Assembly: GCA_034933245.1 (NCBI GenBank) | Contig: JAYFNX010000013.1 | Location: forward strand, 939 to 64,938 | Source of the DNA: Candidatus Pelethousia sp. | GTDB taxonomy: Bacteria; Bacillota; Clostridia; Christensenellales; CAG-138 | Reading direction: 5' to 3' | Length of the DNA stretch: 64,000 nucleotides | Shown: positions 4,382 through 47,557 of the stretch, piece after piece | Position numbering within the stretch: position 1 is the first letter of the stretch | Layout of the letters: each line of letters starts with the position of its first letter | The notes under the pieces: generated by a model | What the model was told of the DNA's origin: nothing | What the model saw: the letters and a program-made list of their open reading frames with translations, nothing else | Databases searched by the model: none | Translations under genes and position numbers: made by a program

Positions 4382-5656
4382 TTAAATCTCCGCCTGGCGG
4401 CCCGCGGTGTATACGGCTGCAATGGTGGATTTATCCGCAAGATACAGCACGCGCTCCAACCGCTCCTCCAAGGTGATGGAAGGATTATAGGCAAAATTCC
4501 CATCGTTGAATACCACGGCATGCAGAGGCTCGCCCAGGCCGAAACCCGGCTGCGCGCCGAAGAATGCCTGGCCCGCCGTGGTGATAAGGTAAAAGGCTTC
4601 CCGCACGGTCAGGAAAGCCTCCTGCTTCCCACTTTGGAGCCAACGCATTTTTGAAGCGCGGATGGCTTCCGTGGCAACATCGGTCATGGAGAGCTTGGCA
4701 CCGCCGGCAATATCGCTGCCCATGCCCACAAGAAGCCCTTCATCCAGCATTTTGCGCAGGGGCGCAATGCCGCTTGCAATGTTGGTGTTGGAATCCGGAC
4801 AATGGATGGCCCATACCCCGGCCGCCTTCATGGCCGCCCGTTCTACCGCATCGCTGTAAACGCAGTGCGCCATCAAGGTGTGTTCGTTCCAAAGGCCATA
4901 TTTTGCATAAGTTTGCCAATATTGTTCGCAGGTAGGGTGCAGTTCCTTAACCCAGGCGATCTCATCCAGATTCTCGGAGAGATGGGATTGGATGGGGATA
5001 TCGGGATGCGCCTTGGCGATTTCACCCAGGCCGGCCATAAGCGCATCGGTACAACTGGGGGTGAAACGGGGGGTCAGAATGGGCTTCATATATTTATAAA
5101 CATCGCACTCTTCGATAAAACGGACGGTCTCGGCGAGGGATCCCTCCGTTGTTTCCGTAACGCTTGGCGCGCTGTTACGGTCCATATTTACCTTCCCGAC
5201 ATAGCCGGTAACGCCGGCTTTTTCCAACTCGCGCATAAGAACATGGGTTCCTTCCCGGTGGATACTGGAAAAGGCGCATATGCGGGTTGTCCCCCTGCGG
5301 ATGAGCTCTTTGGCCAAGCGGCGGTATACGGTTTTTGCATATTCCGTGTCCAGAAAGCGGGCCTCCGTGGGGAACGTATAGGTATGGAGCCAATCCAGAA
5401 GCTGTAAGTCCATCCCCAAGCCCAGCATAGGGAACTGAGGGGCATGCAGGTGAAGATCCGAAAAGGCAGGGGTAATGAGCGCATCCCCATAGCTGATAAC
5501 CTCCGCGGGACAGCCTGCGGGTAGCTTCTGACAAATGGCTTCTACGATTCCGTTACGGGTGAGAATGTAACCACCGGGGATAGTGGTGAGCTCACCCAAG
5601 GCGGGCGCAAAAACAAGATTCCCTCGCAGGGCGCATAAACCTTGCATGGTACGCAT
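4382..5656 (-). CDS. guaD: guanine deaminase (amidohydrolase superfamily)
   Basis: 424 aa with the metal-site motif PAFSDLHLHAPQ and QSHLSENLDEIAWV, both characteristic of guanine deaminases. HCPDSN lies near the C-terminus. Confidence 0.8.
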   Translation of the reverse strand: MRTMQGLCALRGNLVFAPALGELTTIPGGYILTRNGIVEAICQKLPAGCPAEVISYGDALITPAFSDLHLHAPQFPMLGLGMDLQLLDWLHTYTFPTEARFLDTEYAKTVYRRLAKELIRRGTTRICAFSSIHREGTHVLMRELEKAGVTGYVGKVNMDRNSAPSVTETTEGSLAETVRFIEECDVYKYMKPILTPRFTPSCTDALMAGLGEIAKAHPDIPIQSHLSENLDEIAWVKELHPTCEQYWQTYAKYGLWNEHTLMAHCVYSDAVERAAMKAAGVWAIHCPDSNTNIASGIAPLRKMLDEGLLVGMGSDIAGGAKLSMTDVATEAIRASKMRWLQSGKQEAFLTVREAFYLITTAGQAFFGAQPGFGLGEPLHAVVFNDGNFAYNPSITLEERLERVLYLADKSTIAAVYTAGRQAEI

Positions 5657-5742
5657 GAAATGACCTCCTTACAGATATGCGGATATAGATTTCAGGCCGC
5701 AAAGAAGGGGCGGGAAGAGGGCCGACGGGGCCCTCCGCTTCC

Positions 5743-6345
5743 TCAGAAGGATTTGGAGACCTCGGCTTTGAGCTGCTCCAACTCCTGCTTGCAGTCAATG
5801 TCCCTAAGTTCCACATCTTGATCCACCTGGTAGAGCAGCAGCGCATCCTCATGGGCGCAGATCACATGGCTACCGCCGTTTTCCGCAGAAAGGGCGCGGA
5901 GCTCACCAAAAAAACTTTTGGGGAAGATGGCGGGATTTCCCCGCCGCTTGCCATAGCCCATGGCCACAATGTGCCCGGGTCTGGCCTGCTGGTAAAATTC
6001 AAGTTCGCCCAGCACCGTTTCCTGCCGGAGGCAAGGCTGATCCGCCACCATGAACATGGCTGCATCCACCTCGCCTATGGCATCCAGGCCCAAGGTGATG
6101 GTGCGGCTGATACCGGCGGCAGGATCCGGGTTTAAAATGGAATCAAAACCGTATGTTTCCCCCAACTCTAATACGGAAGGATACTGGCTTACCACAACAA
6201 CCCGTTTAAAAGCACCCTTGGGAATGGCTGATAGGGCATGCTCAACGAGGGGCTTACCCATAAAATCGGCCAGAAGCTTGTTTTCTCCAAAACGGGAAGC
6301 GTTTCCCGCAGCCATGAGCACACAGCCAAGTTTCTGCTTTTTCAA
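5743..6345 (-). CDS. MobA/MocA-like nucleotidyltransferase (molybdenum cofactor cytidylyltransferase-like, YgfJ type)
   Basis: Motif LGCVLMAAGNASRFGENKLL matches the MobA-like NTP transferase P-loop. The tracked ORF reaches 6393. I prefer the TTG at 6345, which overlaps the upstream TGA (TTGA coupling). The start is uncertain. Confidence 0.65.
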   Translation of the reverse strand: MKKQKLGCVLMAAGNASRFGENKLLADFMGKPLVEHALSAIPKGAFKRVVVVSQYPSVLELGETYGFDSILNPDPAAGISRTITLGLDAIGEVDAAMFMVADQPCLRQETVLGELEFYQQARPGHIVAMGYGKRRGNPAIFPKSFFGELRALSAENGGSHVICAHEDALLLYQVDQDVELRDIDCKQELEQLKAEVSKSF

Positions 6346-31591: not shown

Positions 31592-31727
31592 GGGCATCAA
31601 ACGGGCATCATGCTATACATTTTCTCTGTATACTTTCTATAAGGCCAAAAATGCTGAGAGCTGGCGGGCATCAAAATCCAGGCAGCATTGGGCATCACTG
31701 AGCCGCAAAGTTCAAATATGGGCAGCA
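31592..31727 (+). repeat. GGGCATCA direct repeats (candidate integrase/Xis arm-type sites, int-proximal arm)
   Basis: Exact copies start at 31592, 31603, 31666 and 31690. A variant, GGGCAGCA, starts at 31720. Confidence 0.6.
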
Positions 31728-31740
31728 TTACAAGATGAAG

Positions 31741-31775
31741 AAAACCCCTGAAAACCTAGTATTTTCAGGGGTTTG
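31741..31775 (-). terminator. hairpin immediately 3' of the tRNA-Ser 3' fragment
   Basis: aaaacccctgaaaa...ttttcaggggttt inverted repeat abutting the CCA end. Confidence 0.5.
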
Positions 31776-31831
31776 TGGCGGAGAGGGTGGGATTCGAACC
31801 CACGTGCGATTGCTCGCAAACTGATTTCGAG
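31776..31831 (-). other. tRNA-Ser 3' fragment = att core copy (anticodon loop to CCA)
   Basis: Reverse complement reads CTCGAAATCAG-TTTGCGAGCAATCGCAC-GTGGGTTCGAATCCCAC-CCTCTCC-G-CCA. There is no matching 5' half. It ends at TGATTTCGAG, where homology to 43124-43133 begins. Confidence 0.65.
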
Positions 31832-32260
31832 GGGCATTTCAGGGCTAAAACCGCCGTTTTTCTTCTTATAAGTTGTTATAGGGTTGCGTCGAAAAGAGTG
31901 TGTTTACTGTGCTATCCGGCGTATCTTTTTATAAGATCAAATAACCGATATACAAGCTCTTTTTAGAAAACCGGGCATCAAAACGGCATCACGGGCATCA
32001 AAAGCCGCAGTCATAGCATACAAGACCTCAAAATCAAAATTTTGCTTGATTTATAATCGCATTTCAAAAGTGTGAGCTATAACCACATTATTTCAACGTG
32101 ATGCCCAATGGCCATAAATCCTTTGGCACCACCTGCATATTTTACTGCTATGTAAATGGAGCTTTTGATGACCAATAAGCTCAGCCGACGAAAAGGAGTT
32201 TTTTTCAGGGCAGCACAAAAATGGCTATTTGGGCATCATCGGGCATCAAAAATTAAAAGG
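31832..32260 (+). repeat. ICE-end arm region with GGGCATCA repeats (homologous to 43134-43303)
   Basis: It starts GGGCATTTC, like 43134. Exact GGGCATCA copies start at 31973, 31993, 32231 and 32241, and an inverted copy lies at 32099-32106. Identity to the arm at 43134-43303 is roughly 65-70 % by eye. Confidence 0.5.
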
Positions 32261-32280: not shown

Positions 32281-32631
32281 TTGATTGACAAAGGCATTAT
32301 ACTCCCGTCCGGCGAGATCAACAAGAACAAGATAAACCTTGTCGCCGGAGCCGTCACGCAGCCGTTCGCTGAAATGGTATGGGTGATGACAGGCGGCGAT
32401 ATGGACACTATCAACCGCCTGACGGATGTTTTCGTTACAATGAACACCCCGGCAGACCGGGACAAGCTATTTCGCATTATTCAAATGCTCTACGGGCTTA
32501 TGGGCTTGCGGTTCTCCGAGGAAGCCGTACCGATGGGTGCACACCCGGAGGCGCTTGATTACTTTCTGTTCTCATTCACGTCAGATTTCGGGGAAATTAT
32601 TCATGATTACATAGCAGAAAAGGATAGTTGA
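32281..32631 (+). CDS. conserved ICE-end protein of unknown function (paralog 1 of 3)
   Basis: 116 aa, about 90 % nucleotide identity to 46959-47330 by eye. The RBS-proximal ATG (32270) is out of frame (ATG CAA AAA CAT TGA). The gene therefore either uses TTG 32281 or is frameshifted. Confidence 0.5.
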   Translation: MIDKGIILPSGEINKNKINLVAGAVTQPFAEMVWVMTGGDMDTINRLTDVFVTMNTPADRDKLFRIIQMLYGLMGLRFSEEAVPMGAHPEALDYFLFSFTSDFGEIIHDYIAEKDS

Positions 32632-34691: not shown

Positions 34692-36059
34692 TCATATCAT
34701 CTTGAATGGCTCTTGTTTCTTCTTGGCTTGAACAACCTGTTTTTCGGCCTCCTGCCGGGCCTCCGCTCCCCGCGCCTGCCGCTCTTTTTCCCGTATTTCC
34801 GGCGCGGTGGCCTCGATGCGGGCGCATAATCGGGCTTCTTTGCGTAGTTCCCGCAAGCGGGCGGTGGCCTCACTGATTTGTGCGGACAGGTCGGCCATAA
34901 CCGCTTCGTCCTGCGCGTCCCGCCTTTGGGCATACAGCGGCTTGCGGGCTTCGGTGGCAGCTTGGATTTGGCTTTCAATGGCCTGTCTGCGGGCCTGCAA
35001 GTCCTCCGTTGTGGTTATGCCGTTGCGGTACAGGTAAAGGAATTGCTCTTTGTAGCGGTCAAGGCGTATGACATCCTCCCGCAACAAAAAAGCCGCCTTA
35101 TTCGGCAGCTTGCGGCGCTTTACTTTTCCCAGCAAGTACAGGTACTTGAAATATAGGGCCATGAAACCTTTGAGTTTTTTGGGCTTGGTAGGGATGGGCG
35201 GCCCGGTATATCGGCAGCGTTTGGATGGCGGGGCCTGCGGCTTTTTCTCTTGTCCGTCGCGCTGACGGGCCAATCGCTCCCGTATGGCTTCCTCCGTGTA
35301 TTCCTCGCCCAGCGATTTCAGCCGGATAAAACGCTGCCCGCCTTGCGGCTTAACGGCCATGTGCTTGACGTTGGGGCCGTATTTCACGGCGTAACCCTTC
35401 TTTTTCAGGGCTTCAATAAAGGTGCTGAACGTGAAGGATTGCCGGATAATCTCGTCAATGTCGGCGGCTATCATGCCCCGGATGGTGGGCCTCCCGGCTT
35501 TTTCGGCGGCCCACTCTGCATAATGCTTGCCCCGGCCTTTCGGCTCAATGACGGACAGGCCATGTTCCCGGCACAGTTCGTCCGATGTTCCCCGGATGGT
35601 GTGAAAATAGCTTTCGGGGGACGAATGGTATTTGATGCCGTCCACAAAGGACACGGAATTAACAACCACATGATTGTGCAGGTGGTGGCGGTCAAGGTGC
35701 GTGCCAATGACAGCCTCAAAACGCTCCCCGAAACAGCGACGGGCAAACTCCACGCCGATTGCGTGGGCCTGCTCCGGCGTCACCTCTCCCGGCTTGAAAG
35801 ACTGGATGAAGTGATAGGCCAATACGCCGCCCGTCTTGGAAAACCGCTGTTTTGTGGCAACCATTTCCCCGTAGGCAGTACCCGGACGCTGGCAGTTGAC
35901 GGCACTTTCAAATAGCCGCTGCTCCGTTTTATCCGGGTTCAGCGCATAATCCACGGATGCGCCCAGCGTGATTGCCTCGTCCGTCTTTTCAGGATTAGCG
36001 GCGTAGGACACGGCGCGGGCAAGGTGGTTGCGGACGGCGAAAACCTTTGTGTAGGCCAT
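34692..36059 (-). CDS. relaxase/mobilisation nuclease (PF03432-type)
   Basis: 455 aa. The N-terminus has an Ala-Tyr start and the histidine triad HLDRHHLHNHVVVNSV. The C-terminus is a coiled coil. Confidence 0.8.
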   Translation of the reverse strand: MAYTKVFAVRNHLARAVSYAANPEKTDEAITLGASVDYALNPDKTEQRLFESAVNCQRPGTAYGEMVATKQRFSKTGGVLAYHFIQSFKPGEVTPEQAHAIGVEFARRCFGERFEAVIGTHLDRHHLHNHVVVNSVSFVDGIKYHSSPESYFHTIRGTSDELCREHGLSVIEPKGRGKHYAEWAAEKAGRPTIRGMIAADIDEIIRQSFTFSTFIEALKKKGYAVKYGPNVKHMAVKPQGGQRFIRLKSLGEEYTEEAIRERLARQRDGQEKKPQAPPSKRCRYTGPPIPTKPKKLKGFMALYFKYLYLLGKVKRRKLPNKAAFLLREDVIRLDRYKEQFLYLYRNGITTTEDLQARRQAIESQIQAATEARKPLYAQRRDAQDEAVMADLSAQISEATARLRELRKEARLCARIEATAPEIREKERQARGAEARQEAEKQVVQAKKKQEPFKMI

Positions 36060-36503: not shown

Positions 36504-37223
36504 TTACCGCGCTTCATGGGATGTTTGGGGCCTGTTTTTCTGCCCTTTGTTTCTCGCCGCTTCTCTTGGAGGATAGGCAAAAACCCGATATTCCTCCGGG
36601 ATTTCCTTGCCATCGTATTCCTCATGGAAGCTGTCGCCTGTTTCCCGCAAATAGCCTTTTTCCGTGATGGTTCCTGTTTCTCCCTGCATCACATCCCGCC
36701 CGTATGCTTCATAGTCAAAATAGTTTTGGATATTCTCCAGGATGTCCAAAGCGGAACATTCGTCAATGAGGTAGTAGCCGTAATCTTCCTCGCTCTGCAC
36801 ATCGGGGTACAGGTCGTAGCAATCAAGGTTTTCCGTAAGGTTGATTAAATCTTGCAGGCTGCCCGTATGCTCTCCATATTCAACGGTAGCTTCATATTTC
36901 TCCAATTCGCCGGGTTCCATTTCATCCAGCATAGAGGCCAGATAATTGAGTTCGTCCAGATTGGCGTATTCCGGCAGGTGGTCGTAAAGGCCGTCAACCA
37001 ATGTTTCATAGTCCGTAATGAAATATTCCTCATAGCGGATGCCGTCAAGCCCGATGCGCTTCAAACATGCCTGCACCTGCTCCGTGGTGGTGGGCAGGGG
37101 CAGCCATTCGCCCACAAGGTCGCCCTCGTTGTACTTGCCTAAGTTGGTGACAAAAGCGGTAATGGGCGCGTCGCTCCGGGCCAGTTCCAGTAGCTTTTCG
37201 GCAAATTCAGTTTGGCTTGTCAC
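36504..37223 (-). CDS. ardA: antirestriction protein ArdA
   Basis: 239 aa, very acidic. The N-terminal motif FVTNLGKYNEGDLVGEWLPLP is typical of ArdA. It uses a GTG start that overlaps the upstream stop (GTGA). Confidence 0.8.
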   Translation of the reverse strand: MTSQTEFAEKLLELARSDAPITAFVTNLGKYNEGDLVGEWLPLPTTTEQVQACLKRIGLDGIRYEEYFITDYETLVDGLYDHLPEYANLDELNYLASMLDEMEPGELEKYEATVEYGEHTGSLQDLINLTENLDCYDLYPDVQSEEDYGYYLIDECSALDILENIQNYFDYEAYGRDVMQGETGTITEKGYLRETGDSFHEEYDGKEIPEEYRVFAYPPREAARNKGQKNRPQTSHEAR

Positions 37224-37605: not shown

Positions 37606-38580
37606 TTAACGTGAAATAGCCGCCCAGTGCTTCGGACGGCTGACTTGTTGTGGCTTTTTCTCTTTTTCTTTTTGAAGAAGGTGTTGCAGGTATTCGTTGT
37701 AGTCCTTACCGATGGGCGGCGGCTCGGCGCTGGTGATGTGGTCGCGGAAAGCGTCGTTTTGCATAAGCGCCGCCCGCAATTTCATCATGCCGTCCCGCCC
37801 CGCCTTGTCGTTGTCCAGATACATGTACACATGGTCTATTTCCGGGTGGTCGGTGAGATATTGGCGCAGGGCCAACGGCGACGTGCCGCTTAATGAAAGA
37901 TAGTGGTATCTGTCCCATACCCCTGTTTTCCGTTTGCGGATGGTGGCAAGGGAAAGGGCGTCAATGGCGCTTTCGCAGACGGCCACAAAGCGACTGCTGG
38001 GCGGGCAGGAAGGCAGCACGAAATTATACCGCTTGTCGCTGCCCTCGATGTCCTGCTTAAAGTCCCCATAGGTTCCCCGGACGGATGCGAAACGTGAGAT
38101 GCCTGCTGCATCCTTGCCCACAAACACGCAGTTGTGATATTCCCGGCTCTCATATAATATCCCGGCTTGGATGCAGCGGTAGATGATTTCCGGGTCGATG
38201 CCCCGGCCCCGCAGGTAGTCAATAGCGGCCCCGTTATCCCGGTTCGGCTCCGGAAGTTCAAAGGGCTTGGGCGGCGGTTCCGGCTTCTTTACCTGCTGAA
38301 AGGAAACGGCAGGGGCGGCGCGTCCGTTGCAAAGCAGGCTGACGGCTTCCACAAAATCCATATCCCGTACTTTAATGAGGTAGTCAAGGGCGGTCTTGCC
38401 GCCGATGCCCCGGCTGAACCAATGCCACTTGCCGTTGCTGATTTTCAGGCTGTCATGGGTAACGGTGCAGTATTCGTGCGGCCCTGTGCGCTTTAGCTCC
38501 TGCGGCTCGTACTGTTGTAGGTAGGAAAGTAGGTCGATTTCCTTTGCCCGCTCGATTTGTTCCTTGCTTACGCCCGGCAT
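37606..38580 (-). CDS. DUF3991 + Toprim domain protein (primase-like, conjugative element type)
   Basis: Start at MPGVSKEQIERAKEIDLLSYLQ (ATG 38580, AAGGAGAG RBS). WHWFSRGIGGKTALDYL is present, and the Toprim region has VAVCESAIDALS...YLDNDKAG. The longer tracked ORF (to 38817) runs through an intrinsic terminator. Confidence 0.7.
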   Translation of the reverse strand: MPGVSKEQIERAKEIDLLSYLQQYEPQELKRTGPHEYCTVTHDSLKISNGKWHWFSRGIGGKTALDYLIKVRDMDFVEAVSLLCNGRAAPAVSFQQVKKPEPPPKPFELPEPNRDNGAAIDYLRGRGIDPEIIYRCIQAGILYESREYHNCVFVGKDAAGISRFASVRGTYGDFKQDIEGSDKRYNFVLPSCPPSSRFVAVCESAIDALSLATIRKRKTGVWDRYHYLSLSGTSPLALRQYLTDHPEIDHVYMYLDNDKAGRDGMMKLRAALMQNDAFRDHITSAEPPPIGKDYNEYLQHLLQKEKEKKPQQVSRPKHWAAISR

Positions 38581-38603
38581 GGTATCACTCTCCTTTTGGG
38601 CAT

Positions 38604-38631
38604 AAAAAAAGGCGCTCATTTCTGAACGCCC
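38604..38631 (-). terminator. intrinsic terminator/attenuator 23 nt upstream of the primase-like start codon
   Basis: On the minus strand: GGCGTTCA-GAAA-TGAGCGCC (8-bp stem including one G-U pair, GAAA tetraloop) followed by TTTTTTT. Confidence 0.55.
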
Positions 38632-38822
38632 GCAGCTTGTTATGGTGGCTTGTATCGCTTTACAGCTTATCCTTTTCCCAGCGGGTAAATGCCTTACCAG
38701 CAGGTGGAAGGGGGTTTTAGGGGGAAACGAAACCCGCCGCGCTCCCGCAAACGGGCAGACTTCCCCCTTCATCGAATAATGTGTTTCATTTTTTGATTTT
38801 AAAACAAAACGGAACACAACTA

Positions 38823-38890: not shown

Positions 38891-39994
38891 ATGAACCACG
38901 ATGAACTACTACCAAAACTAATACGTGCATGTCTTGATAATGATAGGCGTATGGTTGAAGAAATATCTAGTATGATGATTAAAACGCTTAAAAAAAGCAA
39001 ACCAGAAATTGCAAAAGAAATGTCGCAGGCACTTACGTATTCACGAAACGGTGCCTCCGCTTTGCGTTCTGCTGATGTACAACCTTTGCCTATAGATCGA
39101 GAATCTCGTTCCTCTCTTGGGAAGGCAGAAGAACCATTGGAAGTTGAACCGCCTATATTATCTGAGCAAACCATAAATGAATTAATAGATTTTCTTTCTG
39201 AAAGGGAAAAAATCGAACAACTTATTATGGAAGATATTACTCCACCAAACAGCATGCTGTTTGTAGGCCCTCCGGGCGTTGGGAAAACGTATTCAGCAAA
39301 ATGGATATCTTACAAGTTAAACTTACCTCTAGTGACTATGGACTTAGCTACTTCGATATCAAGTTATTTGGGTCGTTCGGGACAGAACATTAAAAGCCTT
39401 TTTGATTACGCACGTTCATTTCCATCAATTTTATTTTTAGATGAATTAGACGCTATAGCAAAGCGTCGTGATGATGCATCAGATTTAGGAGAATTAAAGC
39501 GACTGGTGAACGTTCTCCTAAAAGAAATGGAAACTTGGCCTAGCCAAAGTATTATCATTGCTGCTACCAATCATCCTGATTTATTAGACAAGGCCATTTG
39601 GCGCAGGTTTGATAGAGTAATTCCATTTGACCTGCCAGAGCCCGATCAAAGAAAAGAGCTTATTTTAAGATGCTTTGGGAAATTCGAAAAGAACTTTTCA
39701 AAAATGTCTATAGACTTTATGGTAAAGCAAACAGAAGGGGTTAATGCATCTGATATTTGTAAAATATGCATGCACATAAAAAGGAAAGTCGTTATGAAGG
39801 ATTCTTTGCCTGACCTAATTGCAATAGAAGAAACGTGTACTGGCAACTACAAAGATAGACAAAGTAAAATTGAGGTGTGTAAGATGCTGAAAAATTCATT
39901 TCCTGAATTAAGCGGACGAGATATCTCTCGGATAACTAAAATATCAATAACTTCAGTAAGTCGTTATCTTCAAACAGGAGGAGCGAATAAATGA
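38891..39994 (+). CDS. classical AAA+ ATPase (IetA-like)
   Basis: 367 aa. Motifs: Walker A GPPGVGKT, Walker B ILFLDELD, the second region of homology IIAATNHPDLLDKAIWRRFD, and an N-terminal region of about 110 aa that I cannot place. AT-rich. The ATGA overlaps the downstream gene. Confidence 0.75.
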   Translation: MNHDELLPKLIRACLDNDRRMVEEISSMMIKTLKKSKPEIAKEMSQALTYSRNGASALRSADVQPLPIDRESRSSLGKAEEPLEVEPPILSEQTINELIDFLSEREKIEQLIMEDITPPNSMLFVGPPGVGKTYSAKWISYKLNLPLVTMDLATSISSYLGRSGQNIKSLFDYARSFPSILFLDELDAIAKRRDDASDLGELKRLVNVLLKEMETWPSQSIIIAATNHPDLLDKAIWRRFDRVIPFDLPEPDQRKELILRCFGKFEKNFSKMSIDFMVKQTEGVNASDICKICMHIKRKVVMKDSLPDLIAIEETCTGNYKDRQSKIEVCKMLKNSFPELSGRDISRITKISITSVSRYLQTGGANK

Positions 39995-42261
39995 GTAATA
40001 ATAAACATCCAATACTGGGGCGCGGAGAATTGTATGTGAGCGATATTGAAAAGAGATATTTTGGCGGGCCACCCCAATATCCTCATACCTATACGGAGGG
40101 TAAGCAGAACTTATTGAATGGCTTATCATCTATTAAGGAATCTATAAATGCCAATTCGGAGGTCTTTTTAGAAGAAAAAGTCCTCTGTGTACGCATGGAA
40201 CCCAAATTTGAGGCCAAATCCTACGCTCCCGACATGTTAATGTCTATTGATGGCATCCATCCAATTGGAGGAAGAAAGTACAGCATTACCGAACAAGATG
40301 GTAGTGAAATAAAGGCAAAGCTATATTTTGCTAAAGCTACAGATGATGGTATCAATAATTTATTTTCTACCCTTGAGCAAGGGAAAAAAGACAGCTTTGC
40401 AACATGGCAAAACCAGATAAGTGCAGTTAGAACAATTGATTTATTATCTCACAAAGAAAAAATAGCAGGATTCGCCTCTGACTGGGATAGCGGAATTGTA
40501 GAAATTGTGCTTCATCCAATAGTATGCAATAATGACGCTGCTATAAATAAATTTTTGGAATTGCTCAATTTGCCAGATAACAAGTATAAAATCTCCAGTT
40601 ATTCAGATGGGCCTACATTTTGTGCTGCCGAATGTTCTAGAGAAGATTTAGAACGTATAGCCCTGTTTAACCCGCTTAGAATCGTACATCCTCTTGGAGA
40701 GATTAATATACCCGATTTACGTGAAGGTCAGTTTTTTGCTGCTCCAAAGCCTCCATCTACAAAAGGAAAATCACAAACAATAGTTGGTGTTCTTGATGGT
40801 GGCGCTGATATAACAGTCCCACTATTGAAAAATTATGTTCAGGCATTTGACCTCACCGACGTATCCCCGCAAGATAGTTTTATTTCTCACGGAACATCTG
40901 TTTGCGGGGCTGCATTGTACGGTGCATTGAACTATGCCCAAAGTGCAGACGAACTGCCTGCTCCGTTAGTATCTGTAGAGTCCTACAGGATATTGCCGCA
41001 GCCTTCCACAGGTGACGCACTACAAGATAGCGGGTTATATAGTGCAATTGATAAAGTTGAAGAAATCGTTCCTCAACGCCCAGATATTAGGCTATATAAT
41101 TTATCTTTTGGCCCACGCGGTGCCATTATTGATGATGACATAAGTCGGTTTACATACTCTCTGGATAATTTGACTAATTTACCACATCATCCACTGTTTT
41201 GTGTTGCTGCTGGGAATGATGGAGATTTGCCTTCTCCCTTCAATCGGGTTCAAGCACCCGCCGATTTGGTAAACGGATTGGGCATAGGTTCGTATACATT
41301 TGACAGAAAGGGAAACAAGGTGCGAGCAAATTATAGTTGCATTGGACCTGGGCGGGAAGGGTGTAAAATAAAACCGGATTTATTAGAGTTTGGAGGAAGT
41401 CCAGAACATCCTGCTATTTTAGTTAGTAAAAATCACGGACAGACTGTTGCAAATTGTGGAACAAGTTTTTCATCACCAATTGCCACCGGAAAAATCGGAA
41501 GAATTATTGCATTAAGTGATGAAATCAGCCCCCACATGGCAAGAACGCTGTTAATTCACACGGCTGAAACTTGCGAAGACACAGACATTTGCGAAACTGG
41601 GTTTGGTTTTTGTATTGATGATGTTGATAACATCATCAACTGCCTTGATAATAAAGTAGTCGTTTTATACTCAGGAAGCATTGAGCCAAAACAGAATATT
41701 CGTATGCCGATATTGCTTCCAAACCTTGATAAAATACGAAACAATGCATTAGTTACTTGGACTATTTCTACTATTGGTAAGCCAAATCCAAGTGATGTGG
41801 ATTCATATACCAGCAATTGTGTAGAAGATTATTTTTATCCAGATGATAGGCACTATAGCTATGTCCTCAAGACTCCCAAGAGGATAACAAAACAGGCCCG
41901 ATTAGGTACTCCAGAAGAAGCTAAGCTCATTGCCCTCGGATTTGCTAGGGCAGATTTACCTATCAGCAAACCACCGAAGCAGTTTCTGAGCGAAGACGAG
42001 TTGAGAAATCAACATTTAAAATGGGATACTATTGTAAAAAAATCTCGCTCCATACGGGCATCCTCACTACACAACCCTTTCTTTATATTACATGGTATAA
42101 GCAGGGATTCATTCTCTAATTCGACTATGCAATATTTCGCTGCAATAACAGTGGAAATTCCTAAGTATCCGGGAATTCTGTATGACGATGTACTAAGCGA
42201 GTACCGTAACTTAATGCCTATTCATATAAAGAATCGAAATCAAATCCTTATAGAAGGTTGA
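39991..42261 (+). CDS. S8 (subtilisin-like) serine peptidase with large N- and C-terminal extensions (IetS-like)
   Basis: 756 aa with the catalytic triad context VGVLDGGAD (Asp), HGTSVCGAALYG (His) and GTSFSSPIATG (Ser). No signal peptide is evident, so it is probably cytoplasmic. Confidence 0.8.
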   Translation: MSNNKHPILGRGELYVSDIEKRYFGGPPQYPHTYTEGKQNLLNGLSSIKESINANSEVFLEEKVLCVRMEPKFEAKSYAPDMLMSIDGIHPIGGRKYSITEQDGSEIKAKLYFAKATDDGINNLFSTLEQGKKDSFATWQNQISAVRTIDLLSHKEKIAGFASDWDSGIVEIVLHPIVCNNDAAINKFLELLNLPDNKYKISSYSDGPTFCAAECSREDLERIALFNPLRIVHPLGEINIPDLREGQFFAAPKPPSTKGKSQTIVGVLDGGADITVPLLKNYVQAFDLTDVSPQDSFISHGTSVCGAALYGALNYAQSADELPAPLVSVESYRILPQPSTGDALQDSGLYSAIDKVEEIVPQRPDIRLYNLSFGPRGAIIDDDISRFTYSLDNLTNLPHHPLFCVAAGNDGDLPSPFNRVQAPADLVNGLGIGSYTFDRKGNKVRANYSCIGPGREGCKIKPDLLEFGGSPEHPAILVSKNHGQTVANCGTSFSSPIATGKIGRIIALSDEISPHMARTLLIHTAETCEDTDICETGFGFCIDDVDNIINCLDNKVVVLYSGSIEPKQNIRMPILLPNLDKIRNNALVTWTISTIGKPNPSDVDSYTSNCVEDYFYPDDRHYSYVLKTPKRITKQARLGTPEEAKLIALGFARADLPISKPPKQFLSEDELRNQHLKWDTIVKKSRSIRASSLHNPFFILHGISRDSFSNSTMQYFAAITVEIPKYPGILYDDVLSEYRNLMPIHIKNRNQILIEG

Positions 42262-42305: not shown

Positions 42306-42713
42306 TTATAATGGTAAAAAGTCGTCCATATCCAGCAGGAAGGAAAACAAGAAGTATTGCCGGGCCTCCGGGTGGCCTGCCAGCAGTTCCACATCCTCCG
42401 GGAATTGCAGGCCCGCCACATCGTACAGGATACGCAGGACGGCCAGCATTTCCACTTCCCGGCCCTCGCTGTACAGGTGGGTAAAGATGGCCGAAACCCT
42501 GTCCATTGTCCCGGCGTTGTTGCCGGAGAAGGTGAACAGGGTTTCAAGGAACGGGATGGTGACGGCCCCGGATATGAGGTTGATTTTGTCGCGGTTGATG
42601 TCATTTTGAGGTGTGAGGATGCCCTTGCTTTTCAGCGTGTCGTAGGTGATGTTATTTGCATTCACGGTCTTTGCCTCCTTTGCAATCATACGTTTTTCCT
42701 TGCTTCTTCCCAT
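42306..42713 (-). CDS. conserved ICE-end protein of unknown function (divergent paralog 3 of 3)
   Basis: 135 aa. It aligns by eye with 32281-32631 and 46959-47330 (KINL(I/V)(S/A)GAVT.PF..., HPEA..YFLFSF), roughly 40 % identity. Confidence 0.55.
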   Translation of the reverse strand: MGRSKEKRMIAKEAKTVNANNITYDTLKSKGILTPQNDINRDKINLISGAVTIPFLETLFTFSGNNAGTMDRVSAIFTHLYSEGREVEMLAVLRILYDVAGLQFPEDVELLAGHPEARQYFLFSFLLDMDDFLPL

Positions 42714-42911: not shown

Positions 42912-43000
42912 TGGCGGAAGAGGTGGGATTCGAACCCACGTGCCCTTGCGGACAACTGCATTTCGAGTGCAGCGCGTTACGACCACTTCGCTACTCTTCC
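42912..43000 (-). tRNA. tRNA-Ser (anticodon CGA), encoded CCA
   Basis: The reverse complement folds by hand as: GGAAGAG/CTCTTCC acceptor stem, a D arm with GTGG, anticodon stem CTGCA/TGCAG with loop CTCGAAA, a 16-nt variable arm (class II), T arm GTGGG-TTCGAAT-CCCAC, then G-CCA. Confidence 0.85.
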
Positions 43001-43123: not shown

Positions 43124-43303
43124 TGATTTCGAGGGGCATTTTCGGCTTAAAACGGGCATTTTTCGCTTTATAACTTTTTATAGGATAACGCCGGAAGCCC
43201 TGTATTTCAAGGTTTCCGGCGTTTCGTCTTATAAACTCTCGTAACCGCTATACAAGTGCTTTTTTGAGAGTTGGGCATCATTTGGGCACCACGGGTATCA
43301 AAA
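43124..43303 (+). repeat. att core copy (TGATTTCGAG) plus ICE-B end arm with GGGCATCA-type repeats
   Basis: TGATTTCGAG-GGGCATTTT matches 31822-31840. Repeats are GGGCATCA at 43273, GGGCACCA at 43284 and GGGTATCA at 43293. Confidence 0.5.
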
Positions 43304-43927
43304 TTACGCCAGTGTTTTAAACATTTGTTTAACCCCGTCAATCATACTCTGCCTTGTTAGCTCATGCGCAATAAATGGATACTTGTCCCACATATAGTTC
43401 AAGGTTATATCGCCCTTTATGTAGTACAGTATTATATTACATCTTCCTTGTACATACTCGTCATCTTCATTGAGTCTAAGTACATTAATAGTACGTTGCA
43501 CGGTAGCATACTCAGCAGGCGATAACCCCTTGCCGGGAACTATAAGGCAGCTTGGTAAATCAAGGACAAACCATCCGGAGGATATTGAAAAAGGATCGGC
43601 TATTCCAGTTTGGTTTGCTTTGTTTCCATTAGCTTTTTGAGTAGTAAGACGATAATTGCTCCATTCATAGGCCAAATTAGGATTTATACTTTTAGGGATG
43701 AAATGATCTACGGAGACACTTGTTGATGTTCTTGAAAACCATTCACCGGTATAAGCGCAAATACCTCCATACGCCCTATATAAATCATCACTAGCATATT
43801 TCCAATAAGCGTGTTTTGGCCAAAGCTTATTTGTTGGAGTCGGGCATGTTGTTAAAAACGCATTACCGCGTTGGCGAACATCTGCATCAAAGCTTGAAGG
43901 TTCCGGTTGCATAGTAACTGGTATCAT
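43304..43927 (-). CDS. HNH-type endonuclease, PtuB/TIGR02646-like
   Basis: 207 aa. GGICAYTGEW...SVSVDHFIPKS...EWSNYRLTTQKANGNKAN matches the HNH core (D-H...N...N), with the second Cys pair replaced. The ATGA start overlaps the ATPase stop. AT-rich. Confidence 0.65.
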   Translation of the reverse strand: MIPVTMQPEPSSFDADVRQRGNAFLTTCPTPTNKLWPKHAYWKYASDDLYRAYGGICAYTGEWFSRTSTSVSVDHFIPKSINPNLAYEWSNYRLTTQKANGNKANQTGIADPFSISSGWFVLDLPSCLIVPGKGLSPAEYATVQRTINVLRLNEDDEYVQGRCNIILYYIKGDITLNYMWDKYPFIAHELTRQSMIDGVKQMFKTLA

Positions 43928-45789
43928 ATGCTCACCCCATTCTGTTCAGCGAAATATATCCATCTTGGCCAGAATGGGTCAGTTTCCCCCAGTTCTTTGA
44001 GCAACATTTTGTGTGTTTCAATTATTTCGTTCCGATCTGGATTCTCCTGAAGTTGAATACGCTTGGCACGGTTTATAGCGTTTTCAGCTTCTTGGGCCCG
44101 TGCCTGCCCTAAACTAAAGATAGGCGATGTTAACCATGAATTAACGTGTCCATATTTAATGAAGTCCATGTCGGCTAATTCTGCTTCCCCTGTTTCCTTA
44201 TTTGCTGAAAGATGAAACAGTTTATCTGTTTCCGCATTAAAAAAAGTTTCAGCAGACGCCATCACTAAGGGAGAGTGGGTTGATATTAAGAATTGAATTT
44301 CCAGTTCGCTTGATAATATTGTTTGAATATCCAGTAATGCTGGCAAAATAGCCCTTTGCCATTTCGGATGCAAATGAGCTTCTATTTCGTCTATTAGAAT
44401 TACCATCCTCTTTTCGGGTTTTGTGTTTGTTAGCTCTGCACTTACTTTATGTTCGTACCAAGCCCACACAATCAAATACGCAAGTGTAACTATCCGTCTT
44501 ACACCAGCAGACGCATTTACGATTGGAATTTCACCATATGGATGAATAATTGTCGGTATATCCCGAGTATCGTCAATAATTCTGATAGGCTGCCCAGGAA
44601 GCAATTCGCCCATATCGGGAGGCGAAATGCGGCGAAGCACATTTTTGAGTATTTCAAAAGGATATTTTTCGGGCGTACTTTGCCATTTTACCCAGTCTCT
44701 TATTAATCCCTCAATACTTCCGGTAATACCATCCCAGACTTCACTACGTGAAAAGACAGATTTGCGTACAGCATTCGATACATTATATTGCTTTGCAGGG
44801 TCCCAAACTGCATATGAACCATCAACTCGTGCATAAACAATTAATCCTGGAATAGAAGGGGTTTTTTTCGTTCGAGGCCATTGACCAGTTTTCATATCAA
44901 ACACGACATCAACTTTGGATGGTGCACCTTTATCACTCGCAAGTTCGTAAGTAATTACGGACTTCTTTTTTTCTGCCTTTTTGTGTGGCTGCGCTGATAT
45001 ATCTGCCCATGTTCCAGTCAGTGCCCACCAAGCACATTCCATAAGAAATGACTTTCCAAGACCATTGTCGCCCGTGATAATATTCAATCTATTATTGGGC
45101 TCAATAGAAATATCTGCTGTTGGGCCAACATTTTGCAATTCTAAATATGAAAGGGTCGCCCCCCTATTTGGAGCGGCATCAGGTGGAGGCGTTATCTCCC
45201 TACTTAGGTCTACCCATGTAGTCTGTTTTTCTTGGAAGGGCTTCTTTATTGGATACCCTTGAACTTCAATAGAAAACAATCTGTTTTTCTCTTCCGGTGT
45301 GATATCAAACACACTTAGAAAATGCTGCGAAATAGTATCTAAGTCAATATTATCTGGCCATTCTTTATCTTTAAAAACCCAAATCGCCAGGTCAATAATT
45401 GAAAGGCGTTGTTTGTTCTTTAGTAATGCTTCCAGCACATCAATATAATTGTCTGTCCATCCCCACGTCTTTTCCTTTTTTACATGTAGAAATGCTTGAG
45501 AAAAAGTTTGGGTATTTATCGCTTGTAATCCAGAAGATGGGTACTTTTTATCAACCCATAACTTTTTCTTGGCATTTGATGCATATGGTTGATAATAATA
45601 CTGAGAAGAGGGACTTATTTTATGAACTTCCTCCAGAAAAGCTCTCGTATTGCTGTCCATAGGGAAGTCTACTTTCTTGCCAACCGGAAGATTATTTTTT
45701 TTGCAGGATAAGAATGTAATACCGTAAAACGGATGAACATTACTTAATCGTCTTATTGCGGTTAAGATATAGTCTGTTGATAAGTACAT
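43924..45789 (-). CDS. ABC/OLD-type (AAA_15/AAA_21-like) ATPase, PtuA-like, with unplaced ~215-aa N-terminal domain
   Basis: 621 aa. Motifs: Walker A ITGDNGLGKSFLMECAWWALTG, Walker B plus His VILIDEIEAHLHPKWQ, and LISTHSPLVMAS. Residues 1-215 carry no motif I recognise. Its ATG abuts the MTase stop with a 0-nt gap. Confidence 0.7.
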   Translation of the reverse strand: MYLSTDYILTAIRRLSNVHPFYGITFLSCKKNNLPVGKKVDFPMDSNTRAFLEEVHKISPSSQYYYQPYASNAKKKLWVDKKYPSSGLQAINTQTFSQAFLHVKKEKTWGWTDNYIDVLEALLKNKQRLSIIDLAIWVFKDKEWPDNIDLDTISQHFLSVFDITPEEKNRLFSIEVQGYPIKKPFQEKQTTWVDLSREITPPPDAAPNRGATLSYLELQNVGPTADISIEPNNRLNIITGDNGLGKSFLMECAWWALTGTWADISAQPHKKAEKKKSVITYELASDKGAPSKVDVVFDMKTGQWPRTKKTPSIPGLIVYARVDGSYAVWDPAKQYNVSNAVRKSVFSRSEVWDGITGSIEGLIRDWVKWQSTPEKYPFEILKNVLRRISPPDMGELLPGQPIRIIDDTRDIPTIIHPYGEIPIVNASAGVRRIVTLAYLIVWAWYEHKVSAELTNTKPEKRMVILIDEIEAHLHPKWQRAILPALLDIQTILSSELEIQFLISTHSPLVMASAETFFNAETDKLFHLSANKETGEAELADMDFIKYGHVNSWLTSPIFSLGQARAQEAENAINRAKRIQLQENPDRNEIIETHKMLLKELGETDPFWPRWIYFAEQNGVSI

Positions 45790-46659
45790 CTAAATTACCT
45801 GCAATTCGTTTAGTATATAGTTACAAAAATCGGGACTGAGGTCCACGCCAATTGCTTGTCGTCCTGTTTGCAGAGCTACTCGCATTGTTGTTCCGCTACC
45901 GGCAAAGGGATCAAATACAGCACCATCTTCTGGGCATCCAATTTCTAGACAGCGCTCTACTAGTTCATCGGGGTAAGGCGCAGTATCAATTCCGCCAGCT
46001 TTTGGTCTAGCAAGTATTGTCCAAACGTCTTCGTCAAATTTCTTATCGACAAGTGGTTGCCGATTAAAATAATATTTCCTGTCTTTTGCAAACATAAAAA
46101 CATACTCGTAACTACGGCGTGGCCTATCTCTCACAGATTCAGGCAACGCTTTTTCTCTATGCCATATTATTGGGGTGCGCAAAACCCATTTTCTTGCCAT
46201 CATTTCGATTGCAACTCTCCAAGGAACACCAATAATAGACTTCCGTTGAATATCTATTCCCAATCCACCACTCTTATCAACTGGCCTTAGGCCAAAGCGA
46301 CGTTTGTTGCTTTTGGGGTCAGTTCCATGCGATTTACCTTTACCTGAATAATAAGTATCCCCTAGATTTAGGAATAATAAGCCATCTTTTCTTAGTATTC
46401 TGTAGGCTTCATCCATTATGGTACAAAGGGAATTTATATATTCATCAACAGTTTCCTCAAGCCCAATCTGACCATCAATTTTATAGTCTCTTAAGCAATA
46501 ATAAGGTGGAGATGTAACAATGCAATTAACACTTTCATCGGGAATATCGGACATGGCAATTCGAGCGTCACCACAGTACAGTGCCCAGTTTTTATTTCCA
46601 GAGTATGTTCCTGTCCATTTTTTAACACCTGTATCTAGAACTAATTCAGCATTAATCAA
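45790..46659 (-). CDS. beta-class DNA methyltransferase (N4-cytosine/N6-adenine, PF01555-like; SPPY motif)
   Basis: 289 aa. Motif IV IVTSPPYYCLRDY precedes motif I FDPFAGSGTT, which is the beta permutation. The start is TTG 46659, 8 nt after GAGGGTG. Confidence 0.8.
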   Translation of the reverse strand: MINAELVLDTGVKKWTGTYSGNKNWALYCGDARIAMSDIPDESVNCIVTSPPYYCLRDYKIDGQIGLEETVDEYINSLCTIMDEAYRILRKDGLLFLNLGDTYYSGKGKSHGTDPKSNKRRFGLRPVDKSGGLGIDIQRKSIIGVPWRVAIEMMARKWVLRTPIIWHREKALPESVRDRPRRSYEYVFMFAKDRKYYFNRQPLVDKKFDEDVWTILARPKAGGIDTAPYPDELVERCLEIGCPEDGAVFDPFAGSGTTMRVALQTGRQAIGVDLSPDFCNYILNELQVI

Positions 46660-46674
46660 TTAATGTGCACCCTC

Positions 46675-46866
46675 TTAGCTATCGTTTTCATTATTTACCG
46701 GTTGATTTTTTCGTAAATCACTTGGCTTCTGTGCATTAAGCGGGATAGCCCAAACTCGACCGAACTTAATTGCGCCAGATATTCGCTCTTGAGTACACAA
46801 AAGCTGAATTCTTCGTTCGGATATTCCCCACTGGATTGCGGCTTCTTTAGGAGTCATATAATCCAT
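46675..46866 (-). CDS. small helix-turn-helix DNA-binding protein (possible controller/regulator of the island)
   Basis: Start at MDYMTPKEAAIQWGISERRIQLLCTQERISGAIKFGRVWAIP, an excisionase/MerR-like HTH pattern. It is the first gene of the AT-rich operon. Confidence 0.6.
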   Translation of the reverse strand: MDYMTPKEAAIQWGISERRIQLLCTQERISGAIKFGRVWAIPLNAQKPSDLRKNQPVNNENDS

Positions 46867-46900
46867 CGAAACATCTTCTTTCGCACAATTGGATAATAAC

Positions 46901-46929
46901 AGTATATACGTTCGAACGAATAAAAGCAA
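46901..46929 (-). promoter_or_regulatory. candidate promoter of the HTH-MTase-ATPase-HNH operon
   Basis: On the minus strand: TTGCTT (46929-46924), a 17-nt spacer, then TATACT (46906-46901). Confidence 0.45.
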
Positions 46930-46958: not shown

Positions 46959-47330
46959 ATGCGAACACCTACCAACTTCCTTATGCAAAAGGGCATCATT
47001 AAACCGTCTGGCGAGATCAATAAGGACAAGATAAACCTTGTCGCCGGAGCTGTTACGCAGCCGTTCGCTGAAATGGTATGGGTGACGACGGGCGGCGACA
47101 TGGTCACCATCAACCGCCTGACGGACGTTCTCGTTACGATGAATACCCCGACAGACCGTGACAAGCTGTTTCGCATTATTCAAATGCTCTACGGGCTTAT
47201 GGGCCTGCGCTTCTCCGAGGAAGCCGCGCCGATGGGCGCACACCCGGAGGCGCTTGACTACTTTCTGTTCTCGTTCACGGCAGACTTCGGGGAAATTATT
47301 CATGATTACATAGCGGAAAAGGATAGATAA
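46959..47330 (+). CDS. conserved ICE-end protein of unknown function (paralog 2 of 3)
   Basis: 123 aa, with an AGGAGG RBS at 46946. It is near-identical to 32281-32631. Confidence 0.55.
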   Translation: MRTPTNFLMQKGIIKPSGEINKDKINLVAGAVTQPFAEMVWVTTGGDMVTINRLTDVLVTMNTPTDRDKLFRIIQMLYGLMGLRFSEEAAPMGAHPEALDYFLFSFTADFGEIIHDYIAEKDR

Positions 47331-47353
47331 AGTGCAAGGGAGCAATATTTTAC

Positions 47354-47557
47354 TTAATCCTTCTTGATTTCACCCGGTTTGAATTTACCACTTTCGATAT
47401 CGCGTTTCATTGCTTCATAAAAGATTTTTGCAAGAGGCTCAATAACTTGTTTTTTGTATTCGTCATCGGTAATTTCAACATATTCTAATACTCGACTCTC
47501 ACCAGTATGTAAGTCACATTCGACTACTGAGGGAAGCACATGGGTTTTCTTTTTCAT
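47354..47557 (-). CDS. small hypothetical ICE protein
   Basis: 67 aa. Its C-terminal 28 aa recur as the foreign tail of the truncated T4CP at 32655-32740. Confidence 0.35.
   Translation of the reverse strand: MKKKTHVLPSVVECDLHTGESRVLEYVEITDDEYKKQVIEPLAKIFYEAMKRDIESGKFKPGEIKKD

Follow-up and report, generated by a model that had tools for sequence, protein, structure and literature searches.

A putative restriction-modification-type defence cassette with Septu PtuA and PtuB proteins in Candidatus Pelethousia sp.

Genes of the cassette

The window examined here, 64,000 nucleotides (nt) of DNA from Candidatus Pelethousia sp. (assembly GCA_034933245.1, contig JAYFNX010000013.1, positions 939 to 64,938), carries a compact cassette in which the gene of a predicted DNA methyltransferase (MTase) is joined to those of an ATPase and an HNH nuclease resembling PtuA and PtuB of the Septu defence system. 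As a preliminary description of this DNA had it, four genes occupy the minus strand at 43304-46866 in the order helix-turn-helix (HTH) protein, MTase, PtuA and PtuB, with junctions of 15, 0 and -4 nt. The first encodes a small HTH_17-like protein of 63 amino acids (aa; 46675..46866), recognised by weak Pfam matches and by its homologues. The second encodes an SPPY beta-class N4/N6 DNA methyltransferase of 289 aa with a TTG start (45790..46659; Pfam, PADLOC), the third is the 621-aa open reading frame (ORF) of PtuA (43924..45789), and the last encodes PtuB, an HNH nuclease of 207 aa (43304..43927).

The details of this packing hold as described. The HTH stop codon TAA (46677-46675) is followed by a 15-nt spacer that runs to the TTG of the MTase at 46659 and contains the proposed ribosome-binding site, GAGGGTG, 8 nt ahead of the start; the MTase stop TAG (45792-45790) abuts the PtuA start ATG (45789-45787); and the letters ATGA at 43927-43924 join the PtuA stop with an overlapping PtuB start. 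The block is also AT-rich as stated, its GC content being 0.39-0.41 against ∼0.5-0.58 in the flanks. The promoter is another matter. The letters TTGCTT (46929-46924) and TATACT (46906-46901), 17 nt apart on the minus strand (46901..46929), are indeed there, and they match 8 of 12 consensus positions; however, the match is weak (3/6, TTGCTT against TTGACA, and 5/6), a consensus scan gave no call, and promoter-like sites are not enriched in the AT-rich stretch (18 found, 12.7 ± 3.6 expected), so that the promoter remains putative. A mechanically called HTH ORF (GTG 46968, 97 aa) spans this site. The real start is ATG 46866, because a homologue at another locus (L173) begins at the aligned methionine.

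That the ATPase and the nuclease look like PtuA and PtuB had been read from the letters, and PADLOC models and the predicted fold agree. PtuA matches PADLOC model PDLC00270 (E = 6e-258, residues 1-621 on 627 profile positions) and a second PtuA model, PDLC00307 (E = 7e-149), as well as AAA_21, AAA_15 and AAA_23 of Pfam; PtuB matches PDLC00348 (E = 5e-65) and, above cut-off, Pfam HNH_4. The AlphaFold2 model of full-length PtuA (pLDDT 83.8) retrieved solved PtuA chains as all 50 of its best Foldseek matches in the PDB (probability 1.00, E ∼1e-14), among them those of E. coli Septu (8EEA/8EE4/8SUX) and of retrons Eco7, Ec78 and Ec83; the TM scores are only 0.4-0.55 because the N-terminal domain is unmatched. 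The motifs of PtuA are Walker A GDNGLGKS (residues 240-247), signature SAGVRR (427-432), Walker B ILIDE (464-468) and H-loop THSP (504-507), and its catalytic residues are invariant across 21 homologues. Those of PtuB are intact (D74-H75, N91/N100/N102), and in an alignment of 74 orthologues the conserved columns sit in the D-H...N...N stretch. Retron-specific NCBIfam models stayed below cut-off for both proteins (85 against 500 bits for PtuA; 31 against 150 bits for PtuB with NF041761). Judged by the PADLOC profiles, the predicted fold and the intact catalytic motifs, the pair is true Septu PtuAB, and its long N-terminus falls within a catalogued but uncharacterised PtuA subfamily.

The MTase matches Pfam PF01555 (E = 4e-40) and the PADLOC MTase_II model PDLC03387 (E = 3e-81), and its motifs IV (SPPY, residues 50-53) and I (FAGSGT, 252-257) are intact. 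A motif IV of the form SPP[YF] is typical of N4-cytosine methyltransferases. SPPY is kept in all 57 full-length MTases extracted from PtuA-linked loci, which are 55-83% identical across phyla, and the window's MTase is probably an N4-cytosine (m4C) enzyme, the invariant SPPY being the sole basis of this assignment. Both N4C enzymes (8S9M, M.PvuII 1BOO) and N6A enzymes (M.RsrI, M.MboIIA) are among its closest relatives of solved structure. Related enzymes also occur in viruses: some ten viral contigs carry sister-clade SPPY MTases that are 42-51% identical to the window's, with no PtuAB seen nearby. The phage-borne orphans on IMG/VR contigs of 23-72 kb (L183-L191) share a GDTYYS... loop with it. 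These could serve as counter-defence against such systems, or could simply be a sister clade.

PtuA itself falls into two parts: an ABC-type ATPase body (residues ∼211-621, 43924..45159; Pfam, PADLOC, Foldseek) and, at 45160..45789, an N-terminal domain (N-domain) of residues 1 to ∼210, for which the preliminary description had given ∼215 aa and no relative. The domain is confidently modelled by AlphaFold2 (pLDDT 90.7, pTM 0.88) and has a conserved motif, YPSSGLQAINTQTF, at residues 83-96. It matches no family in the Pfam and NCBIfam libraries used, the former without PF28530 (DUF8426). Its profile found no match among PDB sequences even at E ≤ 10, and Foldseek against PDB and BFVD returned nothing at E ≤ 0.001, the best match being FokI (E = 0.67, TM 0.17). 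Scattered Foldseek matches to winged-helix proteins were insignificant and were discounted as evidence of kinship. A search with hhalign for a target-recognition domain shared by the N-domain and the MTase also gave nothing.

The methyltransferase and the N-domain across genomes

Is the MTase a regular partner of this PtuA or an accidental neighbour? The preliminary description had named a rare linkage among homologues as the finding that would speak against its proposal, and the opposite was observed. Eighty species-level loci with a long PtuA were collected from GTDB representative genomes, 77 of them with enough upstream sequence, in Bacillota, Spirochaetota, Pseudomonadota, Cyanobacteriota, Acidobacteriota, Bacteroidota, Planctomycetota, Chloroflexota, Verrucomicrobiota and others. 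An MTase lies directly upstream of PtuA in 61 of the 77 (79%; 58 full-length and 3 cut by a contig end), and the remaining 16 comprise 6 with internally deleted MTase remnants and 10 without an MTase. The distance from MTase stop to PtuA start ranges from -16 to +17 nt, and PtuB or its start follows PtuA directly in 79 of 80 loci; in the other (L009) the contig ends just past PtuA. The arrangement is far beyond chance, because the same order with near-zero gaps recurs in 58 other species.

The comparison with short PtuA proteins is instructive. The short-form sister PtuA (∼380-430 aa) aligns only to residues ∼200-621, at ∼38% identity, and neither MTase nor N-domain was found in any of 65 assessable metagenome loci of this form (Fisher's exact p = 2e-25 for MTase presence, long versus short form). 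Four plasmid short-form loci likewise had no MTase. The module is, from these gene neighbourhoods, MTase-PtuA(long)-PtuB, and the MTase tracks the N-domain. The claim of obligatory co-expression stands in part: the coupling is found in ∼80% of species, but about one fifth have an intact PtuAB without MTase. Mean pairwise identity is highest for the MTase (64%), followed by PtuA (48%) and PtuB (43%), an order of conservation that, by analogy, matches restriction-modification (R-M) systems. The three genes co-diversify (Spearman 0.40-0.57).

No PtuA homologue was found in the phage GenBank collection, and the plasmid collection held short-form relatives only. Four of the 5,426 complete E. coli genomes carry the module. 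In one of them, ESBLEC_HM24 (L179; NZ_CM143993.1, 4375377-4379083), a HigA-type HTH gene overlaps the MTase gene and is accompanied by those of the AAA ATPase and the HNH protein (WP_021517959/958/957); nearby lie the genes of a Type III R-M endonuclease and a relaxase and a frameshifted integrase gene. The relatives' loci lie on other mobile elements, with Mob_Pre, serine recombinases or integrase remnants. Two orthologues of PtuA (L026, L046) are interrupted by internal stop codons. The first of these loci keeps a full MTase, and the second is a decaying copy, as its PtuA stops, a mere MTase remnant and a truncated PtuB indicate. In two Clostridia a gene of ∼300 aa lies directly upstream of the MTase (L014 4184-5086, L021 4182-5081); we take its product, by eye, to resemble an AbiEii-type nucleotidyltransferase toxin which, if correctly identified, would be a further sign of a defence-island context.

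The N-domain is not confined to PtuA, and a limitation to that architecture had to be rejected when representatives of 554-670 aa proved to be McrB-type and other ABC fusions. A profile search of 1.84 billion representative proteins gave 292 clusters. The 150 best matches all place the domain at the protein N-terminus or no more than ∼80 residues from it, and the full-length ones among them have it at residues 1-5. Among full-length representatives, 50 are of PtuA type, 6 carry an McrB-type AAA_5 motor and 1 a different AAA_15/21 ABC ATPase. The N-domain-AAA_5 fusions are P0124, P0125, P0126, P0130, P0259, P0268 and L182 (hhalign probability 99.5%).

A PF01555 MTase lies upstream of or adjacent to the fusion gene in every assessable locus with a swapped motor. 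The order is MTase, N-domain-AAA_5 and RE_LlaJI in four loci (L223-226), and the same behind an HTH_17 gene in a fifth (L227); in another (L231, the locus of P0124) it is HTH_3, MTase, N-domain-AAA_5-McrB_lid and McrC. Elsewhere an HTH_17-MTase fusion and a PD-(D/E)XK-like protein are convergent with the N-domain-AAA_5 gene (L182), an MTase lies near the fusion gene (L228), or a PF01555 MTase precedes an N-domain-ABC ATPase and a 145-aa protein (L230). The MTases of L227 and L223 are 70% and 63% identical to the window's, within the range of PtuA-linked orthologues, and that of L182 is 48% identical; the N-domains of L227 and L223 are 38-40% identical to the window's and keep the motif.

Directly downstream of the L227 operon (5062-6266) lie an SRA-HNH nuclease (ScoMcrA-like, modification-dependent) and a NUDIX protein, so that predicted methylation-blocked and methylation-dependent systems would stand here side by side. 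The precomputed annotation of P0124 lists Pfam PF28530 (DUF8426) together with McrB_lid; the candidate span of DUF8426 is probably residues ∼208-417 of that protein and not the N-domain, because none of 120 long PtuAs lists DUF8426.

The HTH gene and its junction are real, as the preliminary description had them, but the gene is sporadic, absent from most loci, and its candidacy as a core fourth gene was rejected, a homologue being present in only ∼3 of 85 cassettes. Its product gives weak Pfam matches to HTH_59 and HTH_17, neither of which reaches the cut-off. In L173/L174 a homologue with 52% identity is encoded 21 nt ahead of the MTase, and L012 has a further one ∼570 nt upstream. Non-homologous HTH genes take the same side of the MTase elsewhere: HigA/Xre-type genes overlap it in E. 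coli and Lonsdalea, and others lie upstream in L023, in L227 (HTH_17, directly upstream) and in L231 (HTH_3). In L182 (IMGVR_UViG_3300049216_000628, 1647-2828) HTH_17 is fused to the N-terminus of the SPPY MTase, a Rosetta-stone fusion that links two genes standing apart in the window. The position upstream of, or fused to, the MTase resembles that of R-M controller proteins, and the gene is an optional, lineage-specific accessory and the probable transcriptional controller of the cassette.

Possible modes of action

The preliminary description had proposed an R-M hybrid, and this interpretation appears well supported on comparative evidence. We consider it probable, though far from settled, that the cassette is an R-M-type defence system whose restriction arm is Septu PtuA/PtuB. 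In such a system the SPPY MTase, probably an N4-cytosine enzyme, would mark a fixed sequence motif on host DNA. It would be translated first from the shared mRNA, and modification would for that reason be made with or before restriction. The N-domain of PtuA would bind the cognate site when unmethylated, as on incoming phage or plasmid DNA; this binding would license the ABC-ATPase oligomer of PtuA to activate bound PtuB, and the activated HNH nuclease would then cut the invader. PtuB would be the cleavage arm here, presumably with DNA as its substrate.

The pivot of this scheme is the N-domain, which the preliminary description had guessed to be a reader of DNA or of methylation state. That guess gains strong indirect support from two observations: the domain relaxed after an old loss of the MTase, and it is swapped into the recognition position of McrB/LlaJI.R1. 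With regard to the first, the N-domain of MTase-less Nostocales has diverged 5.5-6.2 standard deviations (SD) beyond the trend that relates N-domain to ATPase conservation, while loci with a recent MTase loss stay within about ±2.5 SD of it. In these Nostocales the N-domain has a ratio of nonsynonymous to synonymous substitution rates (dN/dS) of 0.55 and the ATPase one of 0.18, compared with 0.14 and 0.07, respectively, in cyanobacteria that carry the MTase. The decayed positions are those of the motif at residues 83-96, otherwise invariant. This relaxation is suggestive and not statistical proof, because it reflects a single evolutionary event. As for the second, specificity in LlaJI, which restricts unmethylated DNA, is determined by the McrB-like R1 subunit alone, a protein with a unique N-terminal half, and R2 is the nuclease (PMC1459862); McrB homologues recognise DNA by structurally unrelated N-terminal domains (PMC7680126). 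By analogy, on account of its position in, and its partnership with, LlaJI/McrB-type enzymes, the N-domain is most probably a DNA target reader cognate to the MTase; it would bind DNA, and methylation would block such binding.

Several facts sit uneasily with an R-M-type system. In 16 of 77 species (at loci such as L001, L009-L011, L013 and L043) PtuA and PtuB are intact although no working MTase accompanies them, and one close relative of this kind, P0003 (78% identical), has its N-domain motif intact, as is the case after recent losses of the MTase in general. In a classical R-M system, loss of the modification enzyme with restriction intact should be lethal unless a second MTase of the same specificity is present. 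For the MTase-less loci, a second protecting MTase elsewhere in the genome, a very recent loss or a non-classical dependency are all possible, and the decay of the motif in Nostocales after an old MTase loss is consistent with escape from R-M lethality. Moreover, the co-evolution signal comes from one ancient MTase loss only, and the N-domain has neither detectable similarity to known DNA-binding folds nor a strong basic charge (median pI 7.0). Finally, the PtuAB pairs of characterised Septu and retron systems act as effectors that respond to a trigger, and they can cleave tRNA-Tyr or single-stranded DNA (ssDNA) instead of restricting double-stranded DNA (PMC13096335, PMC12640716).

This last point leads to other ways in which the same genes could work. 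One of them, possible though not likely in our estimate, turns the roles around: the MTase, or the state of methylation or of S-adenosylmethionine (SAM), would be both sensor and antitoxin of PtuAB, with the N-domain docking PtuA on the MTase. Phage anti-restriction, by DNA mimics or SAM hydrolases, would disturb the MTase and release PtuAB, and abortive infection would follow, possibly by tRNA cleavage. There are precedents in its favour: the type I-A retron uses its RT-msDNA as the antitoxin of PtuAB, Septu EcB88 and retron-Eco7 cleave tRNA-Tyr (PMC13096335, PMC12640716), and ABC-ATPase nucleases inside R-M loci (PrrC, RloC) are well established (PMC12065111). The lack of a recognisable DNA-binding fold in the N-domain would suit it, as would the unusually high conservation of the MTase, which one would expect of a protein-protein partner. 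However, the same MTase and N-domain pair serves McrB/LlaJI.R2 and McrBC machines, where the N-terminal position means DNA recognition, and the MTase has no accompanying restriction enzyme that a phage could target. The MTase-less loci lend this account no advantage either, because a cell that lost an antitoxin would fare as badly as one that lost a protective MTase. The failure of hhalign to relate N-domain and MTase also counts on this side, though it has no bearing on binding.

A second variant keeps the reading of unmethylated sites by the N-domain and changes the target: PtuB would destroy the tRNA of host and phage (or other RNA or ssDNA) and not the invading DNA, translation would come to a halt, and the system would be an epigenetic sensor coupled to abortive infection. 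The substrate of PtuAB is known to depend on context, with tRNA-Tyr, ssDNA and plasmid nicking all on record (PMC12640716), and the comparative evidence for methylation-gated recognition is silent on what is cleaved. We nevertheless find this variant quite unlikely. The sister architectures use DNA endonucleases, the PD-(D/E)XK protein LlaJI.R2 or McrC, which makes a shared DNA-cutting logic the simplest assumption, and the kinship between the window's PtuB and the retron PtuB that cleaves tRNA is distant, as the score with NF041761 indicates.

At the far end stands mere adjacency, an orphan Type II MTase next to a Septu of the usual two genes, the long N-terminus of which would serve some other purpose. 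Defence genes do cluster in islands, and the window has IetAS and ArdA genes close by (see below); PADLOC would label the genes separately, as MTase_II and Septu; and ∼21% of species have PtuAB without the MTase. Set against this are the order and near-zero gaps conserved in 58 species of at least 9 phyla, the complete absence of the MTase from short-form loci with the probability given above, and the fact that MTase and N-domain stay together even where unrelated families have replaced the ATPase and the nuclease. In addition, the range of PtuA identity (42-66%) argues against a single recently spread mobile element. These neighbourhood statistics effectively refute adjacency, which we regard as barely tenable.

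There is finally a bolder form of the reader idea, unlikely in our judgement, in which the N-domain would be a sequence-specific, methylation-sensitive DNA reader of new fold that forms, with its cognate m4C MTase, a portable specificity cartridge; unmethylated invader DNA would trigger PtuAB, perhaps in an abortive response against tRNA or ssDNA and not in plain restriction. If true, the cartridge could be plugged into Septu PtuAB, into McrBC/LlaJI and into another ABC ATPase, and epigenetic sensing of non-self would be linked to abortive infection. The R-M-type system with a Septu restriction arm can be addressed directly, since four complete E. coli genomes contain a native copy of the module. 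Beyond that, the N-domain could serve as a reagent if it binds DNA in a methylation-sensitive, possibly m4C-sensitive, manner.

Genomic setting and known systems

The cassette is cargo, as the preliminary description had argued from a second junction in the window that lacks it, and its carrier is a conjugative element inserted beside a tRNA-Ser gene. Homology between the two junctions stops at 43303, beside the PtuB stop codon, and resumes at 47004: 31822-32003 matches 43124-43303 at 72%, and 32305-32746 matches 47004-47445 at 92.5%. The 3.7-kb cassette thereby stands in place of 301 nt in the other copy. On the left it is bounded by a GGGCAYCA-repeat motif (43273..43303) that ends ...ATCAAAATTA; in the empty junction the same motif, at 32231-32257, stands immediately before the gene with which the conjugative-element module opens. 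The cassette lies between an intact tRNA-Ser(CGA) gene (42912-43000, minus strand, 300 nt from the end of PtuB) and the conjugation module, which includes a T4 coupling protein and a VirB4-like ATPase.

Several features of this region merit a record of their own. A degenerate copy of the 3′ half of this tRNA-Ser, together with its upstream region, is found at 31741-32003 (72-77% identical, with 156 nt deleted), which suggests tandem or successive integrations of related elements at this tRNA gene. GGGCAYCA is repeated 11 times (31592-32248, 43273-43291, 46991), clustered at both paralogous junctions and ending at the cassette start 43303; the array could be one of iterons or of recombination sites. 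Three paralogous small ORFs (32281-32631, plus strand; 42306-42713, minus; 46959-47330, plus) have no Pfam match. The DNA of 32290-32589 and 46989-47288 is 89% identical, and the ORF at 42306-42713 is an inverted paralogue (36% protein identity, E = 3e-28), its orientation being such that Septu cassette and tRNA gene are bracketed by inverted paralogues.

Other genes of defence and counter-defence are near. An IetA-like AAA ATPase (38891-39994, plus strand; Pfam AAA, E = 5e-33) overlaps the gene of an IetS-like S8 subtilase (39991-42261, plus; PADLOC IetS, E = 4e-50; NCBIfam IteS below cut-off), and the pair is a predicted second defence system, which shares the low-GC stretch of the cassette but lies across tRNA-Ser from it. 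In the neighbouring mobile-element module lies an ArdA antirestriction protein (36504-37223, minus; Pfam, E = 2e-44), accompanied by a MobA/VirD2 relaxase (34692-36059) and a Toprim/DUF3991 primase (37606-38817). The pairing of an R-M-like cassette with an anti-restriction gene on one element deserves attention.

How does the module relate to what has been described? No description of an MTase-PtuA-PtuB operon or of the N-domain was found in the literature, REBASE and closed-access work being outside the search, and the three-gene module is widespread but apparently undescribed. MTase-linked Septu loci are probably miscounted, because annotation tools split them into "Septu" and an unrelated "MTase_II". 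With regard to the question of what triggers a stand-alone Septu, the module offers a testable answer, namely methylation-based discrimination of self from non-self through a dedicated reader domain.

Septu type I, reportedly described by Doron et al. in 2018, consists of the ABC-ATPase PtuA and the HNH protein PtuB, with structures of E. coli PtuAB in 8EE4/8EEA; its hallmarks include a PtuA6:PtuB2 assembly, a nuclease that ATP inhibits and activity against phages. The module of the window shares with it the membership in the PtuA and PtuB families, the overlap of the ptuA stop with the ptuB start and the intact Walker, signature and HNH residues. The canonical form differs in having two genes, no modification enzyme and a PtuA of ∼420-550 aa; the module adds the PtuA N-domain of ∼210 aa and, in ∼80% of species, a coupled upstream SPPY MTase. 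Two types of Septu have been published, type I (PtuAB) and type II (retron); the preliminary description's statement that canonical Septu has two genes agrees with the literature, in which the sole three-part variant is the retron-linked one (PMC8565338). Type II, or the type I-A retrons (Retron-Eco7/Ec78, Eco4/Ec83), has in common with the module a PtuAB pair and an upstream specificity or sensor component in one operon (PMC8565338, PMC12640716). The third component is nevertheless different: upstream of ptuAB the window has MTase and HTH genes and not a reverse transcriptase (RT) with msr/msd noncoding RNA, so that an MTase and a candidate reader fused to PtuA take the place of RT and msDNA.

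PrrC and RloC are anticodon nucleases whose activity a complete Type I R-M enzyme holds in check, EcoprrI being the one that masks PrrC. PrrC/EcoprrI and RloC resemble the module in that an ABC-type ATPase regulating a nuclease is linked to DNA-modification genes (PMC12065111). They are set apart by gene content: the window has only a Type II-like MTase, an HNH partner and the dedicated N-domain. A further candidate for comparison is Hma (helicase, m5C methylase, ATPase), which according to PADLOC is frequently found near Septu type I (PMC8565338) and is likewise an MTase-containing gene set close to Septu. However, the three genes of Hma, among them those of an m5C MTase and a helicase, form an operon of their own that also occurs away from Septu, whereas the window's MTase is a PF01555 N4/N6 enzyme inside the ptuAB operon.

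The closest likeness in logic is to LlaJI-type R-M and MTase-linked McrBC, which also combine an MTase, an NTPase with an N-terminal specificity domain and a separate nuclease (PMC1459862). The parts differ: the motor of the module is an ABC ATPase and not an AAA+ GTPase, its nuclease is HNH and not PD-(D/E)XK, and LlaJI itself has two m5C MTases and a B3-like N-terminal domain (PMC1459862, PMC7680126). The pair of MTase and N-domain has been recombined with at least three motor-nuclease effectors, which blurs the line between restriction-modification and "new" defence systems. The module, in short, is Septu by membership and R-M/LlaJI-like by logic.

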